Source: Pseudomonadota bacterium (GTDB lineage Bacteria > Myxococcota_A > Polyangia > JAAYKL01). Taken from it: DNA of 64,000 nt. The notes below the pieces were generated by a model that saw only the letters and a list, made by a program, of their open reading frames with translations, was not told where the DNA came from and searched no databases. Of this stretch, positions 31,471 to 60,423 are shown piece by piece. The stretch is from assembly GCA_023229365.1 (NCBI GenBank), contig JALNZK010000014.1, positions 6,970-70,969 on the forward strand. Reading direction: 5' to 3'. Every line of letters begins with the position of its first letter. Position 1 is the stretch's first letter. The translations under genes were made by a program, and so were the position numbers.

Positions 31471-31517
31471 TTTCTTCTCCAGGGACATCAGTCTAGCATG
31501 CTGATGTCCTATCTGTG

Positions 31518-34095: not shown

Positions 34096-34101
34096 TAGGT
34101 C

Positions 34102-37461: not shown

Positions 37462-37503
37462 TTACCCATTTCTTTTTTATCATGGAAATTTCATAGCCTA
37501 ATT

Positions 37504-38610: not shown

Positions 38611-38621
38611 GGTTGTAAATT

Positions 38622-39146: not shown

Positions 39147-39148
39147 TT

Positions 39149-40054: not shown

Positions 40055-40067
40055 GGAGGGATCCATT

Positions 40068-40478
40068 ATGGATCTCTCTATTATAGTCGATCGGGTTATT
40101 GATAATTTACATGGAATAACTCAGTCATATCTTGATGAAAAATTTGTAAGGAATGACGCCAGAAGAGCTTATTCATTTGTAAACTTTTATCTGCCTGCTG
40201 ATTCTGATGCTACTGATGATCAGGTTTATGATGCAGTTGAAGCATTAACTACGTTTTATTCATATGTTACATGGACAACATTGGTAGAACCAGAATTGGG
40301 ATATTTACCTGCTGCAAACATGAACAAAGCAGCGATGTTGAGATCTACGGCAAAAGGTATGATTCAGATGTTGACGTCATTTCCGCTTACAGATGAGTTA
40401 ACTATTGATATGAAAGTGATGTCTAAACGAACGGTATGTTGTTTTGGACTCACAAAATCTGTTGCTGATCCGATATGA
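40068..40478 (+). CDS. head-tail connector/adaptor protein (start at MDLSII after TAAGGAGGGATCC)
   Basis: Strong SD. Synteny. Confidence 0.45.
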   Translation: MDLSIIVDRVIDNLHGITQSYLDEKFVRNDARRAYSFVNFYLPADSDATDDQVYDAVEALTTFYSYVTWTTLVEPELGYLPAANMNKAAMLRSTAKGMIQMLTSFPLTDELTIDMKVMSKRTVCCFGLTKSVADPI

Positions 40479-41095
40479 CAGAAATACTTAAGGTGTATGA
40501 ATATGGGAATCCGGGGTTATTGGGTAGCGTGGACTATGATGATTATAGATTGGCACTTTTAATGGCCGGAGATAATCTGATATTTTTTTGGAACAACCGG
40601 GTAAAATATTATTTTAGACGGAGTGAAAATCAAAGTCTGTTTAAGAAAGGATCTAAATTTAAGCTGGTGTCGCCATCTAAATCGTCTGTGCTTCAGAATG
40701 CATTGTTGAAGCCTACAATAAACGCTAGAAATATGGGGATATTGGGGTTAAAAAATGTTGTGAAGAAAAATCCAAATGGGACTTCCGTTCAGCTTATTAA
40801 GGCGTTGTCTCATGGTGTTCCTGGAAGAGATGGGATGCATTATGATCCATTTTCTGGGGTTATGGAAAAAGGTGGAAAATGGAAAGGATTTAGCGCGGAG
40901 TATTGGAGACGATGGGATACTGTATTTACGAATAGGTGTAGGGAGGAGAGCGATAGGATTGCAGGGTATGTTGCGGATATAAAGGGAGCTGGTTATGAGG
41001 ATAAGGAAGGACATGCATTTAGCAATTCTGGTGAGGTTGTTAAGGCATATCTGAATAGAGGAGTGGAAAGTACAAGATCACTTACACGGTTTTAA
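40475..41095 (+). CDS. head closure or neck protein
   Basis: ATGA overlap. Synteny. Confidence 0.4.
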   Translation: MTEILKVYEYGNPGLLGSVDYDDYRLALLMAGDNLIFFWNNRVKYYFRRSENQSLFKKGSKFKLVSPSKSSVLQNALLKPTINARNMGILGLKNVVKKNPNGTSVQLIKALSHGVPGRDGMHYDPFSGVMEKGGKWKGFSAEYWRRWDTVFTNRCREESDRIAGYVADIKGAGYEDKEGHAFSNSGEVVKAYLNRGVESTRSLTRF

Positions 41096-41097
41096 GT

Positions 41098-41478
41098 ATG
41101 GAAGAAAATGTTGACGAGTATAAGAGTTTGATTGGAAAGTGTCTTAAGGACTTAGGATATAAGATATTTTATTCAAAGAAGGATAGTATGGCACCAAACG
41201 AGTGTGCCATATATTATACGGATGTAGATCTTGAACTTGAAACTACGGAGGACTATATTCAGTGGAACACACTGGTTATACAATGGGAGGAGAAAATAGA
41301 TACAAATCTTAGGCTCCAGGTAAGGAGAATGGTGGAAAATGTTGAGAAGACCGTTAAGTTAAGCGGAGTGCTTCATGTATCTAGCTTTATGTTTGGGAAA
41401 GTAAAAATAATAGATTTAGGAACATCGTATAGATCCGTAATGACTGTATCGTTTAGGGAATTAGTAAGTCATGGGTGA
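41098..41478 (+). CDS. tail completion or neck protein
   Basis: Synteny. Confidence 0.4.
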   Translation: MEENVDEYKSLIGKCLKDLGYKIFYSKKDSMAPNECAIYYTDVDLELETTEDYIQWNTLVIQWEEKIDTNLRLQVRRMVENVEKTVKLSGVLHVSSFMFGKVKIIDLGTSYRSVMTVSFRELVSHG

Positions 41479-41484
41479 AAATAA

Positions 41485-42510
41485 ATGACAGATAGATTGG
41501 TTGCAATTGCAATAAATTCTACTTCTGATTATGGAGTAACCACCATCGGAACTGATATCGCCGGAACTTATTATAAGTTCAGGGGTAGTGCTGATACTGA
41601 TGGGGTGAACAGGACTCCTATATCAGAAGAGAACATGGATACTATGGCACCGGGTGAAATAGACGGTGGTGGATATGCTGTTACCGGTAATATTGATGGA
41701 ACACTTAGGACTGATCCTGGGACTCTTAATCTGATTAGTTGTTTCATGGGGGTTCAAGCTAGTGGAACAACCGCCGGTACTTATTATATGACGAATATCC
41801 CGCTTACCACATGCACGTTGCTTGTGTATGATGAGCAGGCAAATGATAATGCCGGGGTTGCCACATATTATACCGGTGTCGGGATGACGTCCATGGAAAT
41901 AAGCTGTAAGGTAGAAGATTACGCCAAGCTTAAGTTTGCATGGATTGGAAGACGGGCTATAACAGTTCATGGGGCATTATCGGCTGCACCAACGGAACCA
42001 ACCTGGACAAGTTTTCCGATGTCAGTATATTATAATGCAGTGTTGACATTTGGAGGAACTGTCTTACAGACCAAAGGAATTACTGTTAAGGCTGAGAGAA
42101 AATATGCTCAGGATTACAGGTTCTTGGGGTCACAGTTTTTGCAGGGCTTGTATATTAACGGTATGAGCAACCTTTCAGGAACTATGGATATTGGAGCTGG
42201 TGAATGGGATCTCGTAAGTCAGATCATTAATGGGTCCTCAATTGGCGGTGCTCTCGATTCAGGTCATACGGAGTTTGATGGTAGTCTGGCAAACACGATG
42301 GCCTCTGGAGAATTGAAGTTGAAGTTCTATAGGCCGGCTGGTAGCGGTGCGACAAATGGACTGCTTTTGACTGTTACGATAGCTAAATGTGTTGTTACTG
42401 ATTTTAACCGGAGTGTCCAGAACCGGAATATGTGGGAAAAGACCGTGAATTGGAAAGCTGCACTACCTACAAGTGCTGATTTCAGTATTACTGTGGCAGC
42501 AGTAACATAA
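41485..42510 (+). CDS. major tail (tube) protein
   Basis: 341 aa, Gly/Thr-rich, directly before the chaperone pair and the TMP. Confidence 0.5.
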   Translation: MTDRLVAIAINSTSDYGVTTIGTDIAGTYYKFRGSADTDGVNRTPISEENMDTMAPGEIDGGGYAVTGNIDGTLRTDPGTLNLISCFMGVQASGTTAGTYYMTNIPLTTCTLLVYDEQANDNAGVATYYTGVGMTSMEISCKVEDYAKLKFAWIGRRAITVHGALSAAPTEPTWTSFPMSVYYNAVLTFGGTVLQTKGITVKAERKYAQDYRFLGSQFLQGLYINGMSNLSGTMDIGAGEWDLVSQIINGSSIGGALDSGHTEFDGSLANTMASGELKLKFYRPAGSGATNGLLLTVTIAKCVVTDFNRSVQNRNMWEKTVNWKAALPTSADFSITVAAVT

Positions 42511-42557
42511 TTACTTTTTTTCGATATATTGATATCCAGGTAATATCATTATATCTT

Positions 42558-43097
42558 ATGGGTTTTGATAAAGAATCTGGACAGATTATCGAATGCAAAG
42601 ATAATATTATGAAGGTACTTATTCCATCCACTGGAAACGTATATAAGATCCAGGAGCCTGTTGGGAATCTTGCACCTGATCATTTTATTTTGATGTCTAA
42701 AGGAGTTCCTATGGACATGCAGTTTGAGGATGAGAGAGTTCCAAAATATGAATATCCCAGGGATGAAAACGGAGATATTATCGAAGGAGCAGAGAGAATT
42801 CCAGTATTTAAGACAAATGAAGATGGGACGTTTAAGATTGATGAAGATGGAGATCCCATTCCGGTGATGACAAAGGTTAGAACGCCTAGGTGGTCTGATG
42901 CAAACTGGAGAAATTTATTCGAGGCATTTAAAGCATGGTGCGAAAATATACTGAATAAACCGGGTGCCGTGGTTGTAGAAGGACTACCGTTTGATAAGAT
43001 GCCTCCTGCTGACATGTTTGGGATTTTTATGGCGCTATACAACAGGTGTAATAGTGGCGTTACGCCCTTTCGGTTACTTGTCGGTGATGGCGTCTAA
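42558..43097 (+). CDS. tail assembly chaperone (G-like)
   Basis: Between the major tail protein and the TMP. Overlapped by a +1-frame ORF. Confidence 0.5.
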   Translation: MGFDKESGQIIECKDNIMKVLIPSTGNVYKIQEPVGNLAPDHFILMSKGVPMDMQFEDERVPKYEYPRDENGDIIEGAERIPVFKTNEDGTFKIDEDGDPIPVMTKVRTPRWSDANWRNLFEAFKAWCENILNKPGAVVVEGLPFDKMPPADMFGIFMALYNRCNSGVTPFRLLVGDGV

Positions 43098-43284
43098 AGA
43101 GAAAGGACAAGAACAGAAACGAGTAAACAGTCTGATGGATAGCCTCAATGATATAGGTGAGCGATATCATATAAGGCCAACTTCTATTTTTGGATGGGAC
43201 GATCCTAAAGATTGGTATAGGCGATTGTTGTTTGACCTCTACATAGTTAATAATACTAGGAAAGAATCAAATTCTAGTAATTAA
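42991..43284 (+). CDS. frameshift extension ORF of the tail assembly chaperone (GT-like)
   Basis: The +1 frame overlaps the 3' end of 42558..43097. Classic chaperone architecture. Confidence 0.4.
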   Translation: MIRCLLLTCLGFLWRYTTGVIVALRPFGYLSVMASKEKGQEQKRVNSLMDSLNDIGERYHIRPTSIFGWDDPKDWYRRLLFDLYIVNNTRKESNSSN

Positions 43285-43302
43285 TATTAGAGGTTTTATT
43301 TT

Positions 43303-46300
43303 ATGGTGGATCCTAAAAAAAATATCAATGATAATGTAAGAGTTAAGATCTTGCTTGACGCCGCAAAGAAAGGCGATGAGAATCTTGAGCACATTAGAAC
43401 GCGATATAAGGATGCCATAAAGGAGTATGGGGCCGATGAAGACATCATACTTGTTAATCCTAAGCTGGTGAGTGATCGCAAAGAGCTTAATGACATGATG
43501 CAACATGTCATGCTGGATAAAACTTTTGCTGTGGATACCGAGGTAAATCCTAGGGCCGGAAAACCCGGGACTATTCAAATTGCATCTAGATCAGGTGTAC
43601 ATACTATTGCGGTTAATGCATTTAGAGAAAACGAAGCGGATATGACATATCTTAGAAATAAGATAGGGTCGTTGTTAAACCGGGATGACGTGCATTCATA
43701 TTACCATAATAGAATGTTTGATATGGACTTTCTCACCAGGGATGGGTTTAATCTGGCATTGACAAATTCAGGGGGGGAAGTTACAGCACATGATACAGTT
43801 GCATTGGCATCCAGACTTGGGAAGGCAAACTTGCTTGCTAATCCAGAAATGGGAAATTCTCTGGCATCATTTGTACTGAGATCTTTGGGAAAATATCTGC
43901 CTAAGAAGTTGTCTGGGTCTGGATTTGGATTTAACTATAATGTTGAGACATCCAAAACCAAAGATTTTGATAAGTGGTTTCTTAGGTATGGTGCTGGAGA
44001 TGCACTAGCACTGTATGAAGTGGTATCTAAGTATTATGGAGAGCACAATGATCTTAAGAACCTGAAGAATATTGGAGCATCCAAGGATCAGATTGATTTT
44101 ATAAATAAGATTGATGAGATAGAGCATGCAAAGAGATCAATGTTTAGGCCACCGCCTAGTGTTCAGGATTTCATGGAAGGACGGAATATTATAGCAACCA
44201 GGGTTAAAAAGGGAAATGATGGGAAGTTATATGTTGAAAGTTATTTGTCACCGTCTGATGAATCCCAAAATGCAGTGATGAATTACCTAAGCGACAATAA
44301 TATTTTAGATATTAAAAAAAAGCACGAAACAGGAATATTGGAAAAGGCAGCAGCAGTAGGAGTAAAACTAAAAAAAGGAGAAATTGCAGAGGAAGTAAAT
44401 CTAAAAGCAGAAAGAGAAATAGCAAGTTATCTGCATACAAACCACGGAATAGACATTTATAAAGCAGTTGCAGATGCATTATCCGGAACTGCAAAGACCG
44501 ATGTAAAATCCGGGATTAATCCAATTGCAAGGATGTATGCAAAGGGTGTAGCCGGAAGACTTGGGATGTTTAGATCCAACCGGGTGTATGTATCTGATGC
44601 ATATCGAAACAAACCTGGGCAGGGCGGATCATATGCTAAATATGCCAGTGCATACAGCAAGGACAACAAGATTGGAATTGGATATATTCCGGAAATAAGA
44701 AGCGGGGATTTTTCAATTGTAAAGGCATTCAGACAGATGTATGAAGCATCTCCCGAATACCTGATGAAATCTGTGGGGCACTTTGTTAAAGGGGATATAA
44801 ACAAGGGAAATGTAGAATCTGCAACATCTGACATATTTAATAGGGTAAAGAGTCTGCCTACCGATATAAACGAGGTAAAGAATTATTTTGGTGCATTGGG
44901 AATTTCACCTGATGTTATTGATGCAAACCCGGAGATGTGGATTAGGGATTATCATAGACATGGCCTTGTGGGAACATGGCTTGGACTTAGTAATGTGGCA
45001 AAAGGATTGACTGGAAAGAAAAGTATAGAACGAAATGTGGTTGGTGCAATTAAACAGGTTGGGTTTGATCCTACAACCGGAGATCCTATTTATGCAAGGA
45101 AGTTACAGGAATCGAAGTCTGAAATATCGGAGTCCGGATTAAACTCGTTGCTTAATGGAGTATATGAATCGTTTGCCGGGATAAAAATAGCAAAACATAG
45201 TGTTCCAGGATTTACTCCCGGAAAGTCTGCTGCTGCATTTGGATCGTTGCTTGGTAGTGGAAGAGCTGTTGAAATTATAACAAAGATGGGATTACCGGAA
45301 AGTGTGGCTGCCATACCAGGAAAGTTTAGATTCAGACAGCAATTGATGTCATCTGCTGTTAATTATGGTGCGGCATATGAGAACATGGACGAGCGGATGC
45401 AATCCGTAAATGCAATCAACACACCCGAAATGAATGAGTTATATGGGGAAACAGAGCTGCTTAACAAGATGCCTATACGATCCAGGTTTAAAGAAGGAGA
45501 TGTTGATGAATCACATAGAGAACGGTTGAGATCATTGGGATTTGAACCTGAAAAGATTGAAGAACTGGTTGCAAATGGCGGAGAAATATTAAGAGAGGCA
45601 CTGACATCCCCGGTATTGTATGGAAAAGGAAACGAATGGTGGAAACAGTCCAGAATTATTGTTACAGATGATGTAAAGCAGAAGTTTACTGACTTGTGGG
45701 AAAATATTGAGAATTATTCGCCTGAAGTTCAGAATAAGATACGATCTGCTCTTGCTATAGGAACAAAAGGGCCGTTTAGAGATGCAAACGGACTGGTGCA
45801 GGTTGGAGATCTTGATACCAGGATGGTGGGACATAATAAGAATTATGAGTTATCCACAGGGTTCTATCAGGGAACTGTAGGTCAGGAAATAACATCTATG
45901 CTGACTGATAAGCAGTTTAGACATGAGGCATTTATTGAAAATATACCAAAGATGATTCCAGAAATTTATGCAAGCGGCGATAAGGGAATTACACCCGGTG
46001 GAAGATCGCAATATATAAAAGACTCCTATGATTTTTTTGCTCAGATAGGACTGCTTAAGAGCATTCCGGATAAAAAAGTGGGAATCAAAGCAGCAAAAGG
46101 CATCAAAAACACCATATTAACTGAAATGAGTTATAGGAAGGCATATGGGAAAAATGTACTTAGTGATGCTGAAGTTCTGAAGATGTCTCGTTTGTTTAAT
46201 TTAGTGATGTCAAAAAGAGTTGCCAGAGACGAAACTATAATGAGGGCAGATCTAGACAAAAGTCTTGATTATATAGGGAATATTAAGAACGAGGTTGGAT

Positions 46301-49300
46301 ATAACCCCAATGTATTGCATGGATCTTATAGAAATTATAATGAAGAAACAGGAATGAGTACCATTGTACCATATCAGACATTATCTACACTCCCGACGAT
46401 GAGTGAAAAGGAAGCCAGGAAACTGGAAGGAAGTTATATAAACAGAGTTAAGGAACTGTCTGAAGTAATAAGGCCGAAAGAATTGTTGCAAGTAGAAAAG
46501 TTTATTTCTGGAATAGAAAAGGGATATGCCCCAAATGCAACTGAGTCTGTTAATGCAGCATCAATATATGACACGGTGAAGAAGCTGGGATTGAATGAAG
46601 ACGATGCATATTCGTTGGTAAATAATGCCACAACTGAGGCTTATGATATAGGACAGGCGTTTTCTCCGGAATCAAAAATTCCTGCTACCTTGGCAGTCAG
46701 CAGAACGTTATTTCCACCATTAAAAAAGGCAATTGCCTCTGTTATTCCAGATGTTGCACCGGTCATTTCAGATACAGGAGTTGGAAGATCTCATTCTCCG
46801 CTACTGAACGCAATATTTGATATATCGTCTGAGACTGGAGGACGAACTCCATTAATGTCTCACCCCATTGGTATAACCGATCCGGATGTTTTAATGTCTA
46901 TGCTGGAGTCTGGTGCAATAACGGATAAAGAATATGCAAAGGCTGTTGTGTTGTCTGCGAAACCAATTACAGATCAGAAAGGAACTAGATGGGAAAAACA
47001 TATTCCGAGGGCATTTGCAGATATTTCTAAAGTTGATTTCTCCAGTGGATTTATACGACCGCCTAATGTAGGAGATGAATATATTCAGACACGTGGATCT
47101 GGTCCATCTCGTTTATACTACAGTACATTCCGGGGAATGATGGGAGAAACCTTGTCTGTAATGGCTGAGAATGCAGCACGTAAGAAACAAGATTTGAGAA
47201 GGCTCGAGAGCGAACGGGTTTTAGATAAGCTTGCTGGATCTCATTCCATTCAGGTTGATTACTTGAAAGGACACAAGGTTGCTACCGGTGCAAATGCTGT
47301 GATGGAAGAAGGAAAGGTTGGAAATCTTGTTAAGACATATGAGACATATAACAAGGTTTCTGATGCTATAGGAGAGAGACACAGCGATATAATAAAGCCA
47401 GGATATGTTCCTAAGAAAACAATATCAAGAAATCGCATACTTGGGGAATATTCTCCAGAAACAGCAAATGTTAGATATAATAGAGACATTGGACAGATAA
47501 TTGGAAGCGTATCTGATTATGCTGGAATGGCTAAAGATGTTGGAGGATTTAAAGATAGCAAGGAGGCATTAAAGAAGGCTCCTGGAATCATATCAAAGTT
47601 TTTAAACATATGGGGTCCAAGGAAACCAGACACTTGGAAAAGCAGTGATGCCAGATTGTTTGCTCCTGGATATTATCCAGAAAATGATGTGTCTGATTTG
47701 GTTTCCATAGATTTTTGGATGAACAAAGAGTTGGAGCGGGTATGGAGTGGAAAGACTCCATTTAGTCTGATGCCGAAGGGAGAGAACGAAGATATAAAAG
47801 GGTCTGATATATTTGGACTGGACTTTACCAGGGAAACCACAACCGAGAGTTCAAAGGACTTTAAGAGAATAAGCAGAGATGTAATGGAGAAATCAATTCT
47901 CCAGTCCATTAAGGAATCTGATAACCCGGTTGAACTTATAAATCAAATGCATAGATCTATTGAAGGATTCAATCAATGGAAGAAAGAAGGGGTTGAGGGA
48001 ACTTATCCATATATTCCAGATTACTTGGCATTGTCTAAATCACCAGGTATGAGTTCTGGATTGGGAACTTCGCTATTTGACTGGCTTACAAAAGGCAATA
48101 CAAAGGAGTTATCTGCTGCATTTTCTGAGAATGAGAAAGGATATGGTACGTTGTCCAGTATGCTTGAGGAGGTTGCGGAGATACAAGAAAGCGGGATGTT
48201 AAATGGAAAAAGGATAGGGAAAGACGCATCCGATTATGATGTGGTATCTCACGTAATAAATAAATACAGGACTGGAGAAACCGGAGAAATAAGTCTTGAA
48301 TATCTTGATGCGGTTAACTTGGTTTCTGGATATAGACCATTAAGACCTGAATATGGAATACAACATGTTAATCCATATTATAAGGGAATACCAAGGAAGT
48401 TGTCTGAATATAATCCACGCGATTATGGACTTGGGATGAAAAGCGGGAGATCATCTGTGCTTACTGATCTGTACTCAGATGTCATTGATTACAGTAAGGG
48501 TAGAAGTATTGGATTTAGACTGCCTAAATTTGGAAAAGGAACTCCAAATATAAATGGAATTACATTATCTGGTAAGGCATTTGGATTATCGGTGGTAGGC
48601 GATGGCGGACCTGAAATATCAATCTCAGATGATGGGACCATTAGAACCCACAATACGGAAGAAGTGGTTAATTTTAGATCTCCTACTACTGTAATACCAA
48701 AGAATAGACTTCCACACTTTGCTTTTGGAACCCCAGACTTCAACAGAAATGACATAATACGGTCTATTGCGGAATCTATTGAAAATAGTTTTGAAGAATA
48801 TAATGCTCTTGGATCAGATTTATTATCAACAAAGGGAGTCACAAGGACCACCACACCGTCTGAAATCCAGTCGATAAAAAGTGTGGTGGCGGAACATATG
48901 AATTCCGGATTGGCTAAATCCGGGAAGCATCCTGAAAGGGCTGGGTTGTTTAGGACGGAAGGAAGTGGAATAATCAGTGGTATTGGAAGATTTATGGACT
49001 TTGGTAATACTGATTATACGCTTAGTGGTCCTGGTAATGTAAGAAAAGATATTGGGCGGCATGATATCATGGGACAAGATATATCTGGTAGAATCCAGAG
49101 AATGTCGGATGTCACAAATATCACAGATAATAGATTTATACGAAATAAAAACCGGGGGATTGCAGATGTATATGAAGATGCCACCATTCCTGGAATTCAA
49201 AAAGTAGTAACATCATTGCCTCAGCCTGGTGGAGTCGCACAATCCGGAGCAAGATTGTCTGCAACAGAAATTAATAGTCTTAAAGATATGCTGGGGGATT

Positions 49301-52300
49301 TAAATGCGTCGATGAGAGATCTTGGTAGCGATACTGATTATGGTGGATTCATTAAGAGTCTTGAAACATCAATTGGGGCAAACAGGGGTATTGATGTAAC
49401 AAAAGGTGTGGCAGAACAGTTTAAGCTACTTAGTGATCAGCTTAGGATTATTGTTCCGGAATTGAAGTCGTTTTCTGATGTTGCAAAGATAGAGAATATT
49501 GCAAAGGCAAGAAAGGTATCTCCTGAATATCAGGAAGAAATCATGAAAAAGGGGTACTTTAAGGAAGGCCCTATAAGCAGCATCAGATACATGATGGCAA
49601 AGAGGAGAGATCCCGGATTGACTCCGGAAGAATGGAATGCAGATAGGTTTGAAGCATCATTTTCAGAAAGCAGAGATCAGAGATTAGCTAGGTGGTTAAA
49701 GAAGAGGGCTTTGAAGGGGACCGAAGAAACTGAGACATTTGCATTCCAAGCCAATTATGCATTGGAGTCTCCAGCAGCTAAGTCGGAAATGACAAGGGTG
49801 CAGTCAGAGTTCTCTGCATTTGTATCTGAATTGTCTAAGATTGACAAAAATATTAAAATAAATACTCAGACGGGGACAAAATTCTCACCGGGCGAAAAGT
49901 CAAAACAAGTTGAGAGCGTCTTTGGGGAACAACTTGGGATGAATGTAGAGGTGAGTAAAGAAGCTCTGAGATTGAAGTTTGGCAAAGATTATAGGAAGAT
50001 ATTACAGGGTATGTTTGGGCCGTCTTTAATTGATCAGCCAGGATATATTTCAAATGCAAACCTGGATATTGTGGAAGGCAGGAGAACCACAAGACCTACA
50101 GAAGAATCATCTGGATATTTATCTGCATCTTCCACTCTTCAGGGATATGGCAGAAAAATGACGGCATTGAGCATGGGTGCAATGGGTACCTACTTTTCAA
50201 TAACTGGTATCTATAGTGTGATATCTCAAGGCGTTCGTATGGTAACCGATTCACTGAAGGATCTTAGTTCTCAGATGAAATCAATTGCCATAATGGATAA
50301 CTTCAGCAATGGGCTACTTAGATCTAAGGATATAATGGCTACGATGGGAATAACCCAGCAGGATTTCATTAATGGGTGGAAAGGCATAACATCTATCCAG
50401 GCATCGTTCCAGGTATTTTTGGGATCTATTGCTGCTAAGATGATGCAGGTAGGAGAAGACGGAACTTCAGCGTTCAAAACCATTGCTGATACACTGATGA
50501 AGGCATTTACAGATAAAAGAAGCATAGATGAATTGGTGAGTTCTGTTAAGACACTGGTTGTGGCGGGTGCAGAATTGCTACCGATGTTTATTGGGTTTGC
50601 TAAAACTCTTGCTAATCTGGTTGCTGGAATTGCAAAAAGTCCGTTTGCTCCACTTATTACTGGATTTACGCTTATTGCGTTTGTAATGCAACCGGTGCTT
50701 ACACTGATTGCTGTTACACTGGAAGGATTTGCATCATTGCTTACCCTTATGGCATTCATGGGTCCGGCAGCATCAACCGGAGCACTTGGAATGACACAGT
50801 TTGCAGCTGGTACCACAAGTGCAGCTGGTGGTGTAATGGTTCTTAATGGGGCATTGGGAACTACACTTGCAATGTTATCAACTGTAGTTGTGGTTGTAGG
50901 AGCTGCTGTTGCTGCTTGGCAGTTACTAGGAATGGCTATAAATTTTGCATCAAATAAAGAGGTTGTTCCTACCCCGGTTGGATTAATTGGGGGTGCACTT
51001 GGATTCAATAAGGGTGGATTGGTGGAGTGTTTTGCAGAGGGAGGAGAAAAAGGAACCGACATCGTTCCCTCAATGCTTACACCCGGGGAGTTTGTAGTTA
51101 GGAGAGATTCTGCTAAGAAGTTTGGATATGACAGGCTTGACAAAATTAATAAAATGGCAGATGGAGGTGTTGTAGGCGGACTGATGCCATCATCCTCTCC
51201 TGTTATGGATTCAGATAACCGGATGAATATAAACAATAAGTTTGGGTTGTTGACAAATGTGAGTGAGGCAGGAGCCAATGCAAATAAAAATACCGCAAAG
51301 ACGTTATCTGATGCAAGTGGAGGGAAATATCTTAATGTTAAGTTGTATGGAGAAGAAGGGCAGATCGGCGGTAAAGGCGATGTAGAAACTGAAGGTGGAT
51401 ATCTAGGAAATCTAATGGATACTCTAGGAAATGCAGCAGATGAATTTGCGAAGGGGCTATCTGATACATTTACCCCAAGTGGACTCAAGAATGTAGTAAC
51501 AACTGGAGCAGCTGGAGCAACGTTGTCTACTCCATTTAATGAACTTACTAAAAAAGTAAAGGAATGGTGGGATAAAATAGAATGGCCTGATGTCGGAAAA
51601 TGGATTAAAGAAAGATTTAAGTTTTTGGATGATACAGATCTTGGAGAAAAATTTAGGGAATTTAAGGAAAGGTTAATTGAGTTGACTACCGGAAAGGAGA
51701 GAACCGGTAGAACTGAGAATGTAGACATCGATAGGAATGAAAAGATAAAAGGAAGGAAGACACCTGGGGAAGAAAGTCTCGAAAGTAAAACTAATAAAAG
51801 GGTTGTAGACTGGTTTAGAGGGGATAAAGGATTAGAAGGCTGGGAAAAGGTAGATACAGGAACCGAAAAACAACCTAGCAGACCAAAGATGACCTGGTCA
51901 TATGAGAATGAATATGGGAATGTAGAGGCAGAAAAACCAATTTATGAACCAGGAAGAAATGCATTACCAAATCAAATATGGGAGGTAACTCCAGAAGGAG
52001 GTATAGGAAAAGGAGTTGAAACACCAGAGAGCGGGTTTAAAACCGCAAAGCCACCTGTTGGAGTTTCAACTACCCAAGAGATTATTGGTGGTGCTAAAGG
52101 AGGTGGTATTCTTGGTGGTATATTAGCTGCTGTGGATGAGATACTTGTAAAGGGAAAATCTCCGGTAGAGGCAGCACCTACGGTTGGAGTGAGTGCAGCA
52201 GCAGGAGCGGGACTTGGAGCTGCAACAGCTGCATTTCCTATTTTGGGTCTTCCAGTAGCTATGCTTTCTCATGAGTGGATGGCAAACTTCGGCGCAAATG

Positions 52301-53295
52301 TAGCAGAAAAAGCAACTGGAGGAACATGGATAGAAGAGAAAAAAGACAAACAGGGCAATGTTATTACTCCTGGATATATGGAGGGAGGAAATAAAGAACT
52401 TGGTGCGGCATCTGGCATTGCAGGTGCCACAATAAATGATGTCACTGGTGGAGCAGTGACCGGTGGTGCAATAGGATCTGTGGTTCCAGTTGTTGGAACT
52501 GGCATTGGAGCACTTATAGGTGCAATTGCTGGCATAGTTAGTGGCGGGGTTCTTGATATTCAGGATATAAATAAACAGGTTTCGTCTGGCAAAACCAATA
52601 TTGAGGGCAATTATGGTGTAATTGGATCGGTTTCAAAGTATGCAACTAATTTATCCATGAATCCAACTGCCGCAAATGGTGAAGCAAACCCGATGTATTA
52701 TGATGCAACAAAGGCACAAAATATGCTGAGTGGAACGCTTGATTCCATAAAAACAAGTATATTGAGCGGGCTTGGAGATGCATCCGCCACACTTGGTACT
52801 ATATGGGGTTCAGTTTATAATATGGCAATATCAGGATTTGGAGATGCAGCATCGGTGCTTGGAGGACTGTGGACCTGGATATCAGATGCGGTTAAGTCGG
52901 CTATTGGTATTGGAGGCAGTGTAGTAAGTACGGTGTCAAATGCTGCAACTGGTATAGCAAGCGGTGTAACTGGAACTGCAAGTGGGATTGTAAAGGCAAT
53001 TACTGGTGCTGCTGATGGAGGACTGATAACTTCAACGGGATTGATTAATGCTCATGCTGGAGAAGTTATAGGTCCAATTGATAAAGTATCGAGTATTTTA
53101 TCTGGTGCATCAAGCAGCAGCAATACAAATTCTACATCGTCTGTTTCATCATCTGGTGGTAATAATATCTCAATAACAATTCCAATAACTATAGGAAGTG
53201 CATCATCGTCCACAGTTAATGATATCAAGAGCGAACTTGAATATTGGTTACCACGGCTGCTCAAACAGTATGACATAAAAGGAATTAGCTTATGA
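43303..53295 (+). CDS. giant tape measure protein (3330 aa) with an N-terminal DEDDy 3'-5' exonuclease domain
   Basis: Exo motifs FAVDTEV...TIQIAS, YHNRMFDMDFL and YGAGDALALYEV near the N-terminus. Hydrophobic, Gly/Ala-rich helices and the TMP-type motif VPSMLTPGEFVV in the C-terminal third. Position after the chaperones. Confidence 0.8.
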   Translation: MVDPKKNINDNVRVKILLDAAKKGDENLEHIRTRYKDAIKEYGADEDIILVNPKLVSDRKELNDMMQHVMLDKTFAVDTEVNPRAGKPGTIQIASRSGVHTIAVNAFRENEADMTYLRNKIGSLLNRDDVHSYYHNRMFDMDFLTRDGFNLALTNSGGEVTAHDTVALASRLGKANLLANPEMGNSLASFVLRSLGKYLPKKLSGSGFGFNYNVETSKTKDFDKWFLRYGAGDALALYEVVSKYYGEHNDLKNLKNIGASKDQIDFINKIDEIEHAKRSMFRPPPSVQDFMEGRNIIATRVKKGNDGKLYVESYLSPSDESQNAVMNYLSDNNILDIKKKHETGILEKAAAVGVKLKKGEIAEEVNLKAEREIASYLHTNHGIDIYKAVADALSGTAKTDVKSGINPIARMYAKGVAGRLGMFRSNRVYVSDAYRNKPGQGGSYAKYASAYSKDNKIGIGYIPEIRSGDFSIVKAFRQMYEASPEYLMKSVGHFVKGDINKGNVESATSDIFNRVKSLPTDINEVKNYFGALGISPDVIDANPEMWIRDYHRHGLVGTWLGLSNVAKGLTGKKSIERNVVGAIKQVGFDPTTGDPIYARKLQESKSEISESGLNSLLNGVYESFAGIKIAKHSVPGFTPGKSAAAFGSLLGSGRAVEIITKMGLPESVAAIPGKFRFRQQLMSSAVNYGAAYENMDERMQSVNAINTPEMNELYGETELLNKMPIRSRFKEGDVDESHRERLRSLGFEPEKIEELVANGGEILREALTSPVLYGKGNEWWKQSRIIVTDDVKQKFTDLWENIENYSPEVQNKIRSALAIGTKGPFRDANGLVQVGDLDTRMVGHNKNYELSTGFYQGTVGQEITSMLTDKQFRHEAFIENIPKMIPEIYASGDKGITPGGRSQYIKDSYDFFAQIGLLKSIPDKKVGIKAAKGIKNTILTEMSYRKAYGKNVLSDAEVLKMSRLFNLVMSKRVARDETIMRADLDKSLDYIGNIKNEVGYNPNVLHGSYRNYNEETGMSTIVPYQTLSTLPTMSEKEARKLEGSYINRVKELSEVIRPKELLQVEKFISGIEKGYAPNATESVNAASIYDTVKKLGLNEDDAYSLVNNATTEAYDIGQAFSPESKIPATLAVSRTLFPPLKKAIASVIPDVAPVISDTGVGRSHSPLLNAIFDISSETGGRTPLMSHPIGITDPDVLMSMLESGAITDKEYAKAVVLSAKPITDQKGTRWEKHIPRAFADISKVDFSSGFIRPPNVGDEYIQTRGSGPSRLYYSTFRGMMGETLSVMAENAARKKQDLRRLESERVLDKLAGSHSIQVDYLKGHKVATGANAVMEEGKVGNLVKTYETYNKVSDAIGERHSDIIKPGYVPKKTISRNRILGEYSPETANVRYNRDIGQIIGSVSDYAGMAKDVGGFKDSKEALKKAPGIISKFLNIWGPRKPDTWKSSDARLFAPGYYPENDVSDLVSIDFWMNKELERVWSGKTPFSLMPKGENEDIKGSDIFGLDFTRETTTESSKDFKRISRDVMEKSILQSIKESDNPVELINQMHRSIEGFNQWKKEGVEGTYPYIPDYLALSKSPGMSSGLGTSLFDWLTKGNTKELSAAFSENEKGYGTLSSMLEEVAEIQESGMLNGKRIGKDASDYDVVSHVINKYRTGETGEISLEYLDAVNLVSGYRPLRPEYGIQHVNPYYKGIPRKLSEYNPRDYGLGMKSGRSSVLTDLYSDVIDYSKGRSIGFRLPKFGKGTPNINGITLSGKAFGLSVVGDGGPEISISDDGTIRTHNTEEVVNFRSPTTVIPKNRLPHFAFGTPDFNRNDIIRSIAESIENSFEEYNALGSDLLSTKGVTRTTTPSEIQSIKSVVAEHMNSGLAKSGKHPERAGLFRTEGSGIISGIGRFMDFGNTDYTLSGPGNVRKDIGRHDIMGQDISGRIQRMSDVTNITDNRFIRNKNRGIADVYEDATIPGIQKVVTSLPQPGGVAQSGARLSATEINSLKDMLGDLNASMRDLGSDTDYGGFIKSLETSIGANRGIDVTKGVAEQFKLLSDQLRIIVPELKSFSDVAKIENIAKARKVSPEYQEEIMKKGYFKEGPISSIRYMMAKRRDPGLTPEEWNADRFEASFSESRDQRLARWLKKRALKGTEETETFAFQANYALESPAAKSEMTRVQSEFSAFVSELSKIDKNIKINTQTGTKFSPGEKSKQVESVFGEQLGMNVEVSKEALRLKFGKDYRKILQGMFGPSLIDQPGYISNANLDIVEGRRTTRPTEESSGYLSASSTLQGYGRKMTALSMGAMGTYFSITGIYSVISQGVRMVTDSLKDLSSQMKSIAIMDNFSNGLLRSKDIMATMGITQQDFINGWKGITSIQASFQVFLGSIAAKMMQVGEDGTSAFKTIADTLMKAFTDKRSIDELVSSVKTLVVAGAELLPMFIGFAKTLANLVAGIAKSPFAPLITGFTLIAFVMQPVLTLIAVTLEGFASLLTLMAFMGPAASTGALGMTQFAAGTTSAAGGVMVLNGALGTTLAMLSTVVVVVGAAVAAWQLLGMAINFASNKEVVPTPVGLIGGALGFNKGGLVECFAEGGEKGTDIVPSMLTPGEFVVRRDSAKKFGYDRLDKINKMADGGVVGGLMPSSSPVMDSDNRMNINNKFGLLTNVSEAGANANKNTAKTLSDASGGKYLNVKLYGEEGQIGGKGDVETEGGYLGNLMDTLGNAADEFAKGLSDTFTPSGLKNVVTTGAAGATLSTPFNELTKKVKEWWDKIEWPDVGKWIKERFKFLDDTDLGEKFREFKERLIELTTGKERTGRTENVDIDRNEKIKGRKTPGEESLESKTNKRVVDWFRGDKGLEGWEKVDTGTEKQPSRPKMTWSYENEYGNVEAEKPIYEPGRNALPNQIWEVTPEGGIGKGVETPESGFKTAKPPVGVSTTQEIIGGAKGGGILGGILAAVDEILVKGKSPVEAAPTVGVSAAAGAGLGAATAAFPILGLPVAMLSHEWMANFGANVAEKATGGTWIEEKKDKQGNVITPGYMEGGNKELGAASGIAGATINDVTGGAVTGGAIGSVVPVVGTGIGALIGAIAGIVSGGVLDIQDINKQVSSGKTNIEGNYGVIGSVSKYATNLSMNPTAANGEANPMYYDATKAQNMLSGTLDSIKTSILSGLGDASATLGTIWGSVYNMAISGFGDAASVLGGLWTWISDAVKSAIGIGGSVVSTVSNAATGIASGVTGTASGIVKAITGAADGGLITSTGLINAHAGEVIGPIDKVSSILSGASSSSNTNSTSSVSSSGGNNISITIPITIGSASSSTVNDIKSELEYWLPRLLKQYDIKGISL

Positions 53296-53798
53296 CCGAA
53301 CTTGCTGAATATGCTCCATTGCAGTTTGCAGAAAGCACATTGAATATAACTATGGAATATAATGGAGATCATGGAAGAAAGGGATATGCTCCCGGATCAA
53401 CTGGATTTACCCATAATATTTTTGCTAAAAAACACAATAACACCAGAGAACTCAACGTAGATTCTATTCCTGGTGGAGCAATACCAGTGTCTAATTATTA
53501 TGGGAAAAAAGTCCAGGTAGTAACACTAGAGGGATATTTTCCTTATAGATACCCAGATGATTTCTGGAATGTTTTTATGGCTGCATTGTCTCCATATCGG
53601 TATCTTTGCGTTCCTAAGAATATTTTTCTATGTGGTAGTGTAATTCAGGTTAGTAAAAATGTAACATTCCCAGATTTACCGGTTGGATCATACTGGTATA
53701 TAAAACGCTACACATATAAACGGGGTGTTGATATGCCAGAAGTAGCGGGATTTAACTTGGTTTTATGGAGGTGGTATAACCTTGACATCTTTGAGTAA
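53292..53798 (+). CDS. distal tail or baseplate protein
   Basis: ATGA overlap with the TMP stop. Synteny. Confidence 0.4.
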   Translation: MTELAEYAPLQFAESTLNITMEYNGDHGRKGYAPGSTGFTHNIFAKKHNNTRELNVDSIPGGAIPVSNYYGKKVQVVTLEGYFPYRYPDDFWNVFMAALSPYRYLCVPKNIFLCGSVIQVSKNVTFPDLPVGSYWYIKRYTYKRGVDMPEVAGFNLVLWRWYNLDIFE

Positions 53799-55578
53799 TA
53801 CATATGCATATTTCAATCTCATGAGATCAGAATATGGGAGCGATGGATCTCTTATATGGTCCACAATATATGAGCTCCCGCCGGCATCATTAAGCAGCAT
53901 AGAGATTGTTACAGACTCGTATGAGGAAAAAACAGAATATGGAGCAGAACCAGATATAGTTCCAATGGGAATTAATTCGTGTTCTGCCACAATGTCTGGT
54001 CAGTTTATGCGAAAAGTAGCATCTGGTAATAAACTAAATGCCTCGTATCCATTCCCGGCAGGCAATCTATCTCCCGTAATAGTAAGTTCAGATGATTTGT
54101 TTCCATTGTTTGTGGATATAAGCGGGAATACTCATGTGTTTGCGATCCAAAGAACTGCTACCGGAACTGGAGGGAGAGATCTTGGAAGCGGAATATGGAG
54201 AATAGATAAATTTGTTTTTGATAGAGATTCTAATAATGCCGGGATATTTAGGTTTAACATGGTGCTTGGGTATGTATGGACTAATCCGCTTGAGCAACAG
54301 ATATTTTATGGAAATACTGGGGTCAATAAGAAACAGACATGCAAATTCCAGGCTACAATAACTCCAAGTGATAATGACCAAGATGAATTAAATGCAGTTG
54401 AAATATTTAATACTAAGATTACTAAGTCGCTTTATGTAAAGAATACAGCTAAGTTCGATTACACTGTTAACATATTTAAAAATTCTTTTGTCTTGATTGG
54501 AAAGATGGGAGCAACCAGTGATTCAGAATCTAAAGTCTTTCTCGGAATAGTTACGGATTGCGAAAACAATAGGGATGGCACGTTTACTGTGTCGTGTAAA
54601 GAAGTTTGTGACCTGTTATACCGTGGTGTGTGTAGTCAAGGGGGACTGTTGGGTGCATTATTTCCAAAGGTTATAATTCCAAACCCTGATGCATATACCG
54701 CAACAGACTTGACTATAGATCAGATACTAAATAAGATTCTCCAATATTATAAGGCTAAAACCGGATATGAGAGATTTGTTCCCGGATATATAGGAAATGA
54801 TAGAACGCACGGACTCGGTGGATCTATTTATCTACCTGGTCATGATTCAGATACAGAATCTCCAATTAAAATCAGTACTCAGGTTATGTCATGTATGAGC
54901 GTAGGAACAGCAGTAACTAATTTTCTGTATCAGCAGTGCGGGTTTAATATATGGTATAACTATAATACAAATGGAACGATAGAATATGGATACATAAGAG
55001 ATAGAATAACCATCGACATTACAAAGGAGGTTATTGAAAAGAGTGAATTAATCTCAACAAATAACGAAGAAACTGTTCCGGATGGCGTTATGGTATGGGA
55101 TTCAGCAGGAGAATATAACGGAAGTTATGGGGATATAGACATAAATAAACATGTATTGGTTTATGTTATGACCGATAGTAAATTTGATGGGGCGTTAAAC
55201 GCAATTGCAGAAAGAATATTTAAATTGTATGATGGAATTGATTTGTCTAGTTATAGCGTGAGATTTCCGGCTGGAACTGTAAGGTTTAAAGAGGGAGACT
55301 ATTTTGATGGGCTAGGCGACGAAACAGTATCCGATAGAATTATGGAATACAGGGAAGGAACCGATGTAGATCCATTGGAAGATCCAACTGATGCAGTATG
55401 GCAAATTAAGGAACTCACTATAACTGAACAAAGTACCACGGTAACTGTTGGAAGCTCGTATGTATCGGTTCTCGACATATATAGAGGGGTACTTAATAAG
55501 AATAAAGATGGTATTCCGGCACCAGTTGAAAATAAGGTTCTTCAGTCAAAACCGATTGTGGTAGGAAGAGCAACATGA
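53782..55578 (+). CDS. tail tip or baseplate hub protein (598 aa)
   Basis: Synteny. Confidence 0.4.
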   Translation: MTSLSNTYAYFNLMRSEYGSDGSLIWSTIYELPPASLSSIEIVTDSYEEKTEYGAEPDIVPMGINSCSATMSGQFMRKVASGNKLNASYPFPAGNLSPVIVSSDDLFPLFVDISGNTHVFAIQRTATGTGGRDLGSGIWRIDKFVFDRDSNNAGIFRFNMVLGYVWTNPLEQQIFYGNTGVNKKQTCKFQATITPSDNDQDELNAVEIFNTKITKSLYVKNTAKFDYTVNIFKNSFVLIGKMGATSDSESKVFLGIVTDCENNRDGTFTVSCKEVCDLLYRGVCSQGGLLGALFPKVIIPNPDAYTATDLTIDQILNKILQYYKAKTGYERFVPGYIGNDRTHGLGGSIYLPGHDSDTESPIKISTQVMSCMSVGTAVTNFLYQQCGFNIWYNYNTNGTIEYGYIRDRITIDITKEVIEKSELISTNNEETVPDGVMVWDSAGEYNGSYGDIDINKHVLVYVMTDSKFDGALNAIAERIFKLYDGIDLSSYSVRFPAGTVRFKEGDYFDGLGDETVSDRIMEYREGTDVDPLEDPTDAVWQIKELTITEQSTTVTVGSSYVSVLDIYRGVLNKNKDGIPAPVENKVLQSKPIVVGRAT

Positions 55579-57317
55579 GTAATAATGAAGTGGTGTCACT
55601 GGATAAGTTTTTTATTGATCCGCTGTGTAATGGAACAATTACCATTTCTTCGAGTGTTGCAGAGGTTGTAGATACAGTTGATTATCCGGAGTCAAATAAT
55701 ACTGCTGCTGAGTGTAGTGCGTCATATGGAACCGCAATAACAATAACTCCCGGGGGATTGTTTGAGTTTGACTTTGATAGCACAACCACATCATATGGGG
55801 ATAATTTGGGCATTCTTAAATATATTCCAGCATTTTATTCATCCGGATCCATCGTGATTAATGCAATTGTCCAGGAATCTGATGATGAGGACGGAGCCGT
55901 TGATTTAACATTTGATGCTATGATGTATGTAGCGGATGCTGATAAACCAACCTGGTATCCATATAGCTTAGAGTTGGTTACAGATCCGGATGATGTCACT
56001 CTTGAACGAATGCCATACCCGATGGACGGAATGATAACATCACCAAACGATAATACCAAACATGACAGCATTGGCGAAAATACAAATCTCACACACACGT
56101 TTACCATTGGTTCCTGGGTTGGTATGAGACCAATGGTAGAGTCGTTTAATACAGATGGGATTAAAAGAGGACATCTACCTCCATTGTCGTTTAAAGTTAC
56201 GTGTAAGAATAACTTGGAGTCTTCTGTTACATTTTCAAGTCTTAAAGTCTCAATTTCATTTAATTATGCATCAGACGGAACCTTGATGAATCTGGGAAGT
56301 ACTGCGGTTGCTGATTTCTGTAAGTTGTATTGTGATCCTAAATTTATTAATAATGATGAGAAAACCGATCCATCGGACGGCGAAGATAGATATCTTTGGG
56401 CAATTGCAGATGGATATTCAAAAGGAGAAATTCTTCATGTATTTGGATACTATAGGCAGACTCAGAGTGACAGTACTACAAAGTTAAAATGCGTATATCT
56501 GAAGAAAGTAGCTGCAACAGAGGGAACAAACCACGCTGCATTTGTTTATAAATCTGACATAGCGGTTAATCCGGTGGATTTTTCTGATAACTATCGCATG
56601 GTGTTTAGGGGATTTTACTCCGATGAATATGCATATGTGGTAACTCCAAAAGTCATTTGTCAAAGTGATAAGTTTAAAGACATAAGCGTAACTTGTATGA
56701 AAGAAGTAATATCCGATGATGAGGAAGCAGACACGTCATACATTGAATGCTCTCCATCTGATGTCGATGCTATTTTCATGATTGTGGTTAAACTACGGGA
56801 TGATGATATAGATGAGATTGCAATCGTCGGAACAAGACTTGGGGTAACATCTGACGACTTTAATTCCGCTATCAAAACGATAAAGTTTTATGATGTTGAT
56901 ACCGCTTTTGTGCCATATACGGAAAATGAAGATGGAACGAATACTGCGATTCAAGTGTTGAGATCCGACATAAATAAAATATTTTATGATACGCTGGCAA
57001 AGAGCTTTGAAGAGGATGTAATTTTAGTTTCTAGTTTTAATGATGTAATTCCATATGTTGAACTCAAGATAAACTCATATGCCGATTATATATTCCCGTT
57101 ATATGACGGCAAGTCTATTACATTTAATGAGAGTTTATCCAGGTGTACTGATGGTGTAAGAAGTAGAGAGTTGTTTTATTTTACTAAGAAGACATCCGGT
57201 ATATTTAATACGATTACTTTGCAGGATTCAGATAAGCGATATACTGCTACGCTACAAATAACATATGGCAAGTACAAAGGTATGATTGTTCATAAAGATA
57301 GAGATATAACAACTTAG
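55575..57317 (+). CDS. tail or baseplate structural protein (580 aa)
   Basis: ATGA overlap. Synteny. Confidence 0.4.
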   Translation: MSNNEVVSLDKFFIDPLCNGTITISSSVAEVVDTVDYPESNNTAAECSASYGTAITITPGGLFEFDFDSTTTSYGDNLGILKYIPAFYSSGSIVINAIVQESDDEDGAVDLTFDAMMYVADADKPTWYPYSLELVTDPDDVTLERMPYPMDGMITSPNDNTKHDSIGENTNLTHTFTIGSWVGMRPMVESFNTDGIKRGHLPPLSFKVTCKNNLESSVTFSSLKVSISFNYASDGTLMNLGSTAVADFCKLYCDPKFINNDEKTDPSDGEDRYLWAIADGYSKGEILHVFGYYRQTQSDSTTKLKCVYLKKVAATEGTNHAAFVYKSDIAVNPVDFSDNYRMVFRGFYSDEYAYVVTPKVICQSDKFKDISVTCMKEVISDDEEADTSYIECSPSDVDAIFMIVVKLRDDDIDEIAIVGTRLGVTSDDFNSAIKTIKFYDVDTAFVPYTENEDGTNTAIQVLRSDINKIFYDTLAKSFEEDVILVSSFNDVIPYVELKINSYADYIFPLYDGKSITFNESLSRCTDGVRSRELFYFTKKTSGIFNTITLQDSDKRYTATLQITYGKYKGMIVHKDRDITT

Positions 57318-57326
57318 AGGGCTATT

Positions 57327-57887
57327 ATGATACATGATAAATTTAAGGTGATGGATCGGGTTGAGTTTAGAAAAATAAAGGTTGAAGAACTTCCAGAAAA
57401 TTATACTCAAGAAGATCTTATTAATGCCATAGACTATTCGGATGATGGGATAATTCAACAGACAATATGTCACCCTACTGTTTTCCAGAGAGTTCTTAAT
57501 AAACTTGGATTGTTTCATTATCTTAAGGACGCTCCAATGGACTATGAAATACAGAGAATTGCAACATCTGTATATACGACATACGGCTATATAAGCGTTG
57601 GAATAAGTAGTTCAAGCCCCACAGATTATACATTGAATAATTTGGTTTCATCTGTTCTTACAAGAGTTACAGCACTTAAGGGATATGAGACGCTGTATGT
57701 AACAAACGACACTGCAACATTCATTGGTGTGTTTACTCCAGATGGAACATATACTATTGTGGAGACTGGACTTCATACAGCTGCGACCAGCGGATATATG
57801 GGATACAGACAGACAAGTTGTTCAATTTCTACTACCGCAAGTATTCCATTTGCAATTTTCTGGAAGGTAACAATAGCAAGAGGTTAA
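57327..57887 (+). CDS. tail-associated protein
   Basis: ORF. Confidence 0.4.
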   Translation: MIHDKFKVMDRVEFRKIKVEELPENYTQEDLINAIDYSDDGIIQQTICHPTVFQRVLNKLGLFHYLKDAPMDYEIQRIATSVYTTYGYISVGISSSSPTDYTLNNLVSSVLTRVTALKGYETLYVTNDTATFIGVFTPDGTYTIVETGLHTAATSGYMGYRQTSCSISTTASIPFAIFWKVTIARG

Positions 57888-57889
57888 GA

Positions 57890-60414: not shown

Positions 60415-60423
60415 CTTATTTTT

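Follow-up and report, generated by a model that had tools for sequence, protein, structure and literature searches.

A giant phage tape measure protein fused to an N-terminal DEDDy 3'-5' exonuclease domain

Tape measure proteins (TMPs) are usually seen as rulers and membrane conduits that occasionally carry add-on domains, mostly cell-wall hydrolases in a central or C-terminal position. The first sign that the head-proximal N terminus of a TMP can hold an intracellular nucleic acid enzyme came in 2024 with the virion RNA polymerase of Thermus phage P23-45. The N-terminal ∼1200 residues of the TMP of this phage, gp96, form an active two-barrel RNA polymerase, which is present in virions and for which transcription of the entering DNA at the TMP pore was proposed (Chaban et al. 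2024, PMC10770324). In the neck of phage 80alpha, the TMP N termini lie directly beneath the tail completion protein, which closes off the DNA end, with the C termini at the tip (PMC11661146). A TMP-related protein with a C-terminal EndA-like endonuclease, the effector Tme, was described in a contractile injection system of Streptomyces davawensis (Nagakubo et al. 2024, PMC11126660), and neither TMPs nor DEDD exonucleases appear in a survey of polyvalent injected proteins (Iyer et al. 2017, PMC5512222). Here, we analyzed a stretch of 64,000 nucleotides (contig JALNZK010000014.1, hereafter the window), which is a segment of a phage genome and contains a giant open reading frame (ORF) of 3330 codons. 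The encoded protein opens with a DEDDy-type exonuclease domain, the fusion is conserved in its relatives, and the gene occupies the position of a TMP gene. The initial annotation of the window had proposed a TMP fused to an N-terminal DEDDy exonuclease, and both halves of this proposal are supported, the former by the gene slot and C-terminal features and the latter by motifs, Pfam and NCBIfam matches, and predicted fold.

The giant ORF and its N-terminal domain

The giant ORF and the elements of its N-terminal part are as follows.

43303..53295, + strand: giant ORF, 3330 aa, ATG start; exonuclease, then a middle region with no family match, then a tape measure module
43303..43464, + strand: N-terminal leader, aa 1-54, two helices predicted by AlphaFold2 (AF2)
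43465..44037, + strand: predicted DEDDy 3'-5' exonuclease domain, aa 55-245
43534..43542, + strand: ExoI motif D78-T79-E80, invariant in 6/6 sequences
43702..43734, + strand: ExoII motif YHNRMFDMDFL, with N136 and D140 invariant
43987..44016, + strand: ExoIII motif YGAGDALALY (Y229, D233), Tyr-type DEDDy signature, with Y229, G230, A231, and D233 invariant

The ATG of the giant ORF is preceded by GAGG, which resembles a Shine-Dalgarno (SD) sequence, and translation of 43303..53295 revealed zero internal stops. The motifs VDTEV (aa 77), TIQIAS (aa 90), YHNRMFDMDFL (aa 134), and YGAGDALALY (aa 229) are found in the first ∼250 residues, which bears out the earlier description of a single uninterrupted ORF that starts with exonuclease motifs. 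No internal repeats were found in the protein by self-blastp.

A phmmer search with aa 1 to 320 against 1.84 billion cluster representatives retrieved five proteins only (E 5e-60 to 6e-33), all of 3349 to 3791 aa and each with the match at its N terminus; ordinary exonucleases were not among them. Word-indexed homology searches with aa 1 to 320 and with the alignment of aa 545 to 1000 returned zero matches. We aligned the query with these five representative relatives, whose full-length sequences are 31 to 34% identical to the giant protein and whose N-terminal domains (N-domains) are 32 to 41% identical within the six-sequence alignment. Invariant positions include D78-T79-E80, N136, D140, H163-D164, Y229-G230-A231, and D233, which by sequence make up the full ExoI, ExoII, and ExoIII set of a DEDD exonuclease of the Tyr type (not the His type).

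The sole Pfam match of the whole giant protein is PF01612 (DNA_pol_A_exo1), as the initial annotation had expected for the N terminus; it covers aa 55 to 242 and positions 3 to 166 of the 173-position profile (E 0.0076, 16.5 bits). The isolated domain matches with an E value of 1.2e-4 (22.3 bits; gathering cutoff, 23.6 bits), and five of the six N-domains do so at E <= 1, the best with 2.3e-6. NCBIfam exonuclease/polymerase models match the same stretch (9.5e-7 in one relative), the match being limited to the exonuclease part (aa 48 to 154). PDB sequence searches, whether run with the domain, with the full-length protein, or with any of three profiles, yielded only insignificant Rrp6 matches at ExoI. 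We also considered a family A DNA polymerase, with exonuclease and polymerase parts, and rejected it: motifs A (DYSQIE-like) and C (HDE-like) are not conserved, there is no Pfam DNA_pol_A match, and neither an HRDC nor a polymerase domain was detected after the exonuclease.

With the six-sequence alignment, AF2 produced a model that is confident over aa 7 to 156 and poor over aa 157 to 300, with the expected beta1-beta2-beta3-alphaA-beta4-alphaB order (a single-sequence AF2 run gave an unusable model, with a pLDDT of 36.5). In the leader, it predicts helices at residues 10 to 22 and 28 to 40, with block-mean pLDDT values of 69 to 83 across aa 11 to 50. The predicted N-domain has an RNase H-like alpha/beta exonuclease fold, and its Foldseek matches in the PDB are almost exclusively DEDDy exonucleases, with Nibbler at the top (3e-6), followed by Rrp6, RNase D, EXD2, and Klenow. 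The structural matches also include dinucleotide-degrading diDNases, Exd1, and the Pol theta exonuclease-like domain. A structure search of BFVD returned exonuclease domains of phage PolA and stand-alone exonucleases and zero tail proteins. A significant exonuclease-fold match, as the initial annotation had anticipated for residues 60 to 250, was thus obtained. Altogether, motif conservation, Pfam and NCBIfam matches, and the predicted fold soundly identify the N-terminal ∼250 residues as a predicted DEDDy exonuclease; the conservation pattern indicates that its active site is under selection, and the enzyme is apparently catalytically active.

The initial annotation had cautioned that an indel might split off the exonuclease, and we asked accordingly whether separate genes for an exonuclease, a middle protein, and a TMP could have been joined by a sequencing error in assembly or gene calling. 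One 40,953-bp JGI contig (proteins P0011 to P0015), from a public assembly of the same virus, indeed carries the gene as five ORFs of 99.7 to 100% identity, which span aa 1 to 214, 240 to 545, 556 to 2037, 2054 to 3167, and 3174 to 3330 and show five missense differences from the query. However, the fragments stop exactly before codons that are one substitution away from a stop (GAG215, TGG546, GAA2038, and TGG3168), and the first break falls within the exonuclease domain and not at a domain boundary. None of the breaks lies at a long A/T homopolymer run, and a GGGG run overlaps the last one. Such break positions are not those of gene boundaries but suggest errors or a defective gene, and this contig is probably an error-laden or defective copy and not proof of separate genes. 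Three assemblies, moreover, agree on an identical intact giant ORF: 29,993 nt of the window recur without a single difference in a Logan contig, with the giant ORF intact, and NCBI entry MCK9459952.1 is the same 3330-aa protein, labeled "hypothetical protein" in a metagenome-assembled genome (MAG). The diverged relatives keep the fusion as well, with their giant genes in the same gene order on contigs from different samples. In four further JGI metagenome loci, as in the five representative relatives, the domain always starts the giant ORF, which is closed in two of the four (3434 and 3349 aa) and reaches the contig end in the other two. An artifact is therefore almost certainly not the explanation. 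An internal translation start yielding a separate "true" TMP was likewise rejected, since no conserved internal ATG with an SD sequence was found inside the giant gene.

TRZ48442.1, a relative of P0005, is like MCK9459952.1 a "hypothetical protein" in a MAG. The labels of the two MAGs, Proteobacteria for that of MCK9459952.1 and Dehalococcoidia for that of TRZ48442.1, contradict each other and were not used to assign a host; the phage contigs are probably misbinned in them.

Tape measure module and middle region

The remainder of the giant ORF contains the following elements.

44038..50109, + strand: conserved middle region, aa 246-2269, no family match; the most conserved block is aa 545-1000 (44935..46302)
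48520..48747, + strand: conserved "VGxxGPEIS" block, aa 1740-1815
50110..53292, + strand: tape measure module, aa 2270-3330, phrog_58 match
50545..50952, + strand: hydrophobic, transmembrane-like helix cluster, aa 2415-2550 (Kyte-Doolittle, 19-residue window, >1.6)
51064..51099, + strand: VPSMLTPGEFVV motif, aa 2588-2599, shared with other TMPs
52207..52563, + strand: second hydrophobic, Gly-rich region, aa 2969-3087 (hydropathy)
53050..53073, + strand: C-terminal AHAGEVIG motif, aa 3250-3257, with A3250, H3251, G3253, E3254, and G3257 invariant

The TMP family phrog_58 covers aa 2641 to 3309 (E 9e-7), and two other TMP families, phrog_167 (9.4e-8) and phrog_25241, match the relatives. PF10145 itself gave no match in the Pfam searches. 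The VPSMLTPGEFVV motif (LTPGEFVV) recurs, sometimes twice, in P0007 (1508 aa, with a PF10145 TMP domain) and in two further metagenomic proteins, P0008 and P0009, and Gordonia phage GMA4 has it in the protein annotated as its TMP. Strongly hydrophobic, Gly/Ala-rich stretches are confined to aa 2415 to 2550, 2969 to 2990, and 3054 to 3087. The TMP hallmarks listed in the initial annotation, hydrophobic Gly/Ala-rich segments and a motif near residue ∼2600 (at aa 2588), are thus confirmed; its remark on a length far beyond that of other TMPs is not borne out, as the TMP of Thermus phage P74-26 has 5006 aa. The most conserved part of the family (aa 2280 to 2380) lies in this module. No other ORF among the structural genes is as large as the giant gene, and the same gene order is found in four independent loci. 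The PHROG matches, the shared motif, the hydrophobic clusters, and the gene position support the assignment of aa ∼2270 to 3330 as a TMP, and it is only over this part that the protein is demonstrably TMP-like. An antisense ORF of 485 aa (50271..51728, - strand) lies entirely within the hydrophobic Gly/Ala-rich part of the gene and is most likely a by-product of the codon composition of the sense strand.

All six relatives can be aligned over aa ∼250 to 2270, a region that contains invariant charged residues and gave zero matches in Pfam, PHROGs, NCBIfam, the PDB, and cultured phages (tblastn). In its "VGxxGPEIS" block, which presumably resembles a common TMP motif, G1757, G1761, G1766, and E1771 are invariant, and the GPE motif is found in four of the six full-length sequences (the query, P0002, P0004, and P0005). 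We found no conserved DxDxD, Walker A, PolA, DEAD, GDD, YxDD, or HNH motif in aa 246 to 2269. For lack of such motifs, a polymerase, helicase, or HNH identity was rejected, and so was a cryptic P23-45-like RNA polymerase, for which both DxDxD and any similarity are missing. The mean helix propensity of this region is like that of the globular proteins of the window and unlike that of the uniformly helix-prone P74-26 TMP, a comparison of composition only and a weak one. Our analysis thus brings to notice a conserved region of ∼2000 residues, about two thirds of the chain, that has no detectable relatives.

One relative, P0003 (3791 aa; locus L003, 10001..21376), has an extra segment near its C terminus with "VVAHEGTHAYND", a zinc-peptidase signature of the HExxH-like type. 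HExxH-like zinc peptidases are a kind of domain often added to TMPs. The segment is absent from the query and is not recognized by Pfam.

Neighboring genes and genome context

The initial annotation had placed the giant ORF between a tail-chaperone pair and distal tail genes. The upstream half of this placement stands, with a tube gene and a chaperone-like pair, while the downstream genes are distal tail genes by position only.

41485..42510, + strand: tail tube protein gene, 341 aa (PF18906 Phage_tube_2, E 1.3e-12; phrog_290, E 7e-14)
42558..43097, + strand: G-like tail assembly chaperone ORF, 179 aa, from its position and the conserved frameshift arrangement
43068..43073, + strand: TTT CGG, candidate site of a +1 frameshift, read in frame 0 close to the 3' end of the G-like ORF
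43072..43284, + strand: extension in the +1 frame, 70 aa, with which a GT-like chaperone fusion would reach ∼241 aa
53292..57317, + strand: three genes (168, 598, and 580 aa), presumed from their position to encode distal tail or tip proteins

The tube gene likewise lies 5' of the giant gene in two other loci of the family (L002 and L003), and in every locus the G-like ORF, which has no family match in the profile searches, separates the tube gene from the giant gene. The in-frame TTT CGG is kept in the window and in L002 (∼5191), L003 (∼9767), and L004 (∼1428); CGG is a rare Arg codon, accounting for 8.7% of the Arg codons in the late genes. In these four loci, the +1 frame is open for 68 to 71 aa with a conserved C-terminal peptide (RPSSLFGWDDPDDWYERLLFDL..NNTW) and stops 11 to 24 nt before the start of the giant gene. 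A canonical -1 frameshift was rejected, since the -1 frame reaches only 11 to 110 nt past the stop of the G-like ORF, lacks a conserved peptide, and ends 52 to 177 nt short of the giant gene. By sequence, the arrangement looks like a G/GT pair of tail chaperones produced by a +1 shift at the rare CGG codon rather than by the usual -1 shift. The three downstream genes, whose order is kept in L002 to L004, have zero Pfam or PHROG matches. The only downstream tail gene with a family match encodes a 318-aa protein (58207..59163, + strand) with several tail-fiber, tail-spike, and tail-assembly PHROG matches, phrog_9851 matching it in three stretches (E 5e-17).

The window is transcribed divergently, with an early/replication module on the - strand (1..31000) and a late/structural module on the + strand (31000..64000), between which both GC and AT skew change sign. 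Further genes of the two modules are as follows.

2144..2854, - strand: Cas4-like PD-(D/E)XK nuclease
5134..7407, - strand: family B DNA polymerase (PolB) with its own exonuclease domain
7416..8330, - strand: AAA_24 protein
14027..14704, - strand: DUF2786/DUF7168 protein
20098..20877, - strand: thymidylate synthase (ThyA)-like gene
34102..35646, + strand: large terminase
35971..37461, + strand: portal, weak match

Neither a tRNA nor a sheath gene was detected in the window. No close relatives were found among the cultured phages of INPHARED, whether by megablast with the giant gene or by tblastn with aa 1 to 300 and aa 300 to 2270, and scans of IMG/VR and GTDB with the N-domain gave no confirmed relatives and therefore no prophage and no clue to the host. 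The giant TMP family is rare, uncultivated, and unannotated.

Proposed role and comparison with known systems

We propose, and consider fairly probable, that the giant protein is the one-chain TMP of an uncultivated long-tailed phage, composed of a helical leader and a DEDDy exonuclease, ∼2000 family-less residues, and a tape measure module of ∼1060 residues, and that the enzyme is delivered to the entry pore, where it would act locally on 3' ends. Judging by 80alpha and P23-45, the C-terminal module would lie at the tail tip and exit first upon infection, and its hydrophobic helices would insert into the membrane and form a DNA conduit. On the same analogy, the N-terminal leader and exonuclease would be head proximal, adjoin the leading genome end, and exit last; the TMP N termini of 80alpha, which bind the tail completion protein (PMC11661146), suggest that the leader may dock in the neck. 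A few exonuclease copies per virion would thereby be placed where the entry pore opens into the cytoplasm, and there they could act locally on 3' ends, most plausibly on the terminus of the incoming genome itself, and trimming or chew-back of this end might ready it for annealing, circularization, or priming. Since the copies would be few and tethered, local action on 3' ends is favored and bulk degradation of host nucleic acid is less likely; a role in replicative proofreading is unlikely because the phage PolB has its own proofreading domain.

Several points weigh against this proposal. The AF2 model is of low confidence over aa 157 to 300, so that the geometry of ExoIII is read from sequence alone, and the query's own PF01612 score (22.3 bits) lies slightly below the gathering cutoff of 23.6 bits. 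Two thirds of the chain are globular-like in composition, unlike the P74-26 TMP, which raises the question of whether they fit in a tail lumen of ∼4 nm or are removed by proteolysis before assembly. Finally, an exonuclease that attacks the end of the phage's own genome has an obvious cost.

The initial annotation had suggested instead an injected weapon acting in trans, in which case the exonuclease might degrade nucleic acids of the host or of competitors, such as host RNA or tRNA 3' ends, RNAs or DNAs of defense systems, short linear oligonucleotides, or resident plasmid or prophage DNA. The catalytic residues are preserved, RNA-processing enzymes (Rrp6, Nibbler, and RNase D) and diDNases are among the closest folds, and injected multidomain "polyvalent" effectors are an established theme (PMC5512222), yet a virion holds few TMP copies (three in 80alpha; PMC11661146), a poor stoichiometry for bulk degradation, and the enzyme would be tethered to a membrane-embedded chain. 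In addition, the Pfam and NCBIfam searches recognized no other effector or anti-defense domain (the PADLOC library was not searched), and we regard such a weapon as possible but doubtful. Equally tentative is the reading that aa 1 to 2270 are not a ruler but a multienzyme "entry module," of which the exonuclease would be the sole recognizable part in a set of new nucleic-acid-processing domains. In such a module, the conserved block of aa 545 to 1000 might, with the same reserve, harbor, e.g., an end-joining activity or a cryptic polymerase, primase, or nuclease, and the domains could, again only possibly, be threaded through the tail and act on the genome during entry. If this were true, it would, together with P23-45, make the head-proximal TMP end a general cargo site for genome establishment enzymes.

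A further reading is that aa 1 to ∼2270 act in the producing cell, e.g., in tail assembly or in the handling of DNA ends at head-tail joining, and are then cleaved off, leaving the C-terminal ∼1060 residues alone as the virion tape measure. This would account for a TMP-like look that is limited to aa 2270 to 3330 and for a composition of aa 1 to 2270 similar to that of the window's globular proteins, and fragmented or processed TMPs are frequent (PMC11661146). However, we identified no protease domain or conserved cleavage signal, the surroundings of aa 2200 to 2300 are conserved as one unbroken block, and the N-terminal enzyme of P23-45 was found in virions by antibodies (PMC10770324), so we consider cleavage improbable. 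More improbable still is a degenerate, noncatalytic exonuclease fold with a structural or nucleic-acid-binding role, for instance, in holding the genome 3' end in the neck. Inactivated DEDD folds do exist, and our structural matches include Exd1 and the Pol theta exonuclease-like domain, but the five catalytic positions, N136, and H163-D164 are invariant at 32 to 41% identity, a pattern expected of purifying selection on an active site, which speaks against degeneration.

Compared with the RNase D, Rrp6, Nibbler, EXD2, WRN, and Pol I proofreading domains (PF01612), the N-domain shares ExoI to ExoIII, a Tyr-type ExoIII, and the fold; it is very distant from RNase D-, Rrp6-, and Pol I-type exonucleases in sequence, and its context is the N terminus of a virion tail protein. 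With ordinary siphovirus TMPs (PF10145/PHROG 58 type), the protein shares PHROG matches, hydrophobic segments, LTPGEFVV, and a position after a putatively frameshifted chaperone pair, and it differs from them by an N-terminal extension of ∼2270 residues that opens with a nuclease. It resembles the polyvalent injected proteins (PMC5512222) in being very large, multidomain, presumably delivered with DNA, and early acting; of their hallmark domains (effector or anti-defense domains and a processing peptidase), Pfam and NCBIfam found none, only the exonuclease. Like Tme, it is tape-measure-like and has transmembrane helices, a nuclease domain, and a gene upstream of putative distal tail genes (baseplate genes for Tme). 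Unlike here, where a phage protein carries an N-terminal DEDDy domain, the nuclease of Tme is a C-terminal DRGH/H-N-N endonuclease in a contractile injection system, and no homology between the two proteins was detected.

The closest parallels are P23-45 gp96 and P74-26 gp95, which are also giant single-chain TMPs (5002 and 5006 aa, versus 3330 aa here) with a nucleic acid enzyme at the N terminus, transmembrane TMP features further along the chain, and a gene placed after that of the major tail protein and one small ORF. The P74-26 TMP is in addition annotated with a metallopeptidase domain. Similarity to this protein is not meaningful (1.7 bits for the hidden Markov model of the family and blastp E values of at least 0.055), and DxDxD, the metal-binding motif of the P23-45 type, is absent from the query and nowhere aligned across the family. 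Without this motif and without similarity to gp96, the giant protein makes an independent case, and its enzyme is a different one, a predicted DEDDy exonuclease and not a polymerase. The activity and virion presence of the P23-45 enzyme were shown by experiment, while the giant protein is known from its sequence. The initial annotation had called a nuclease on an ejected TMP unusual: the literature searched indeed describes no TMP-exonuclease fusion and no DEDDy exonuclease at the N terminus of a virion tail protein, while an N-terminal nucleic acid enzyme as such has its precedent in P23-45 (PMC10770324). These comparisons suggest that the head-facing end of TMPs can carry nucleic acid enzymes into the host along with the genome, and they raise the questions of how a folded enzyme of ∼200 residues, and perhaps 2000 more, passes through a tube of ∼4 nm, what becomes of the first DNA end to enter the cell, and whether TMP N termini could be put to use in cargo delivery. 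The protein is best classed as a giant TMP bearing an N-terminal nucleic acid enzyme, a kind already known from P23-45, with the exonuclease as the new element; a different nucleic acid enzyme in the same position in a second, unrelated lineage would suggest a recurring design and not a one-off.

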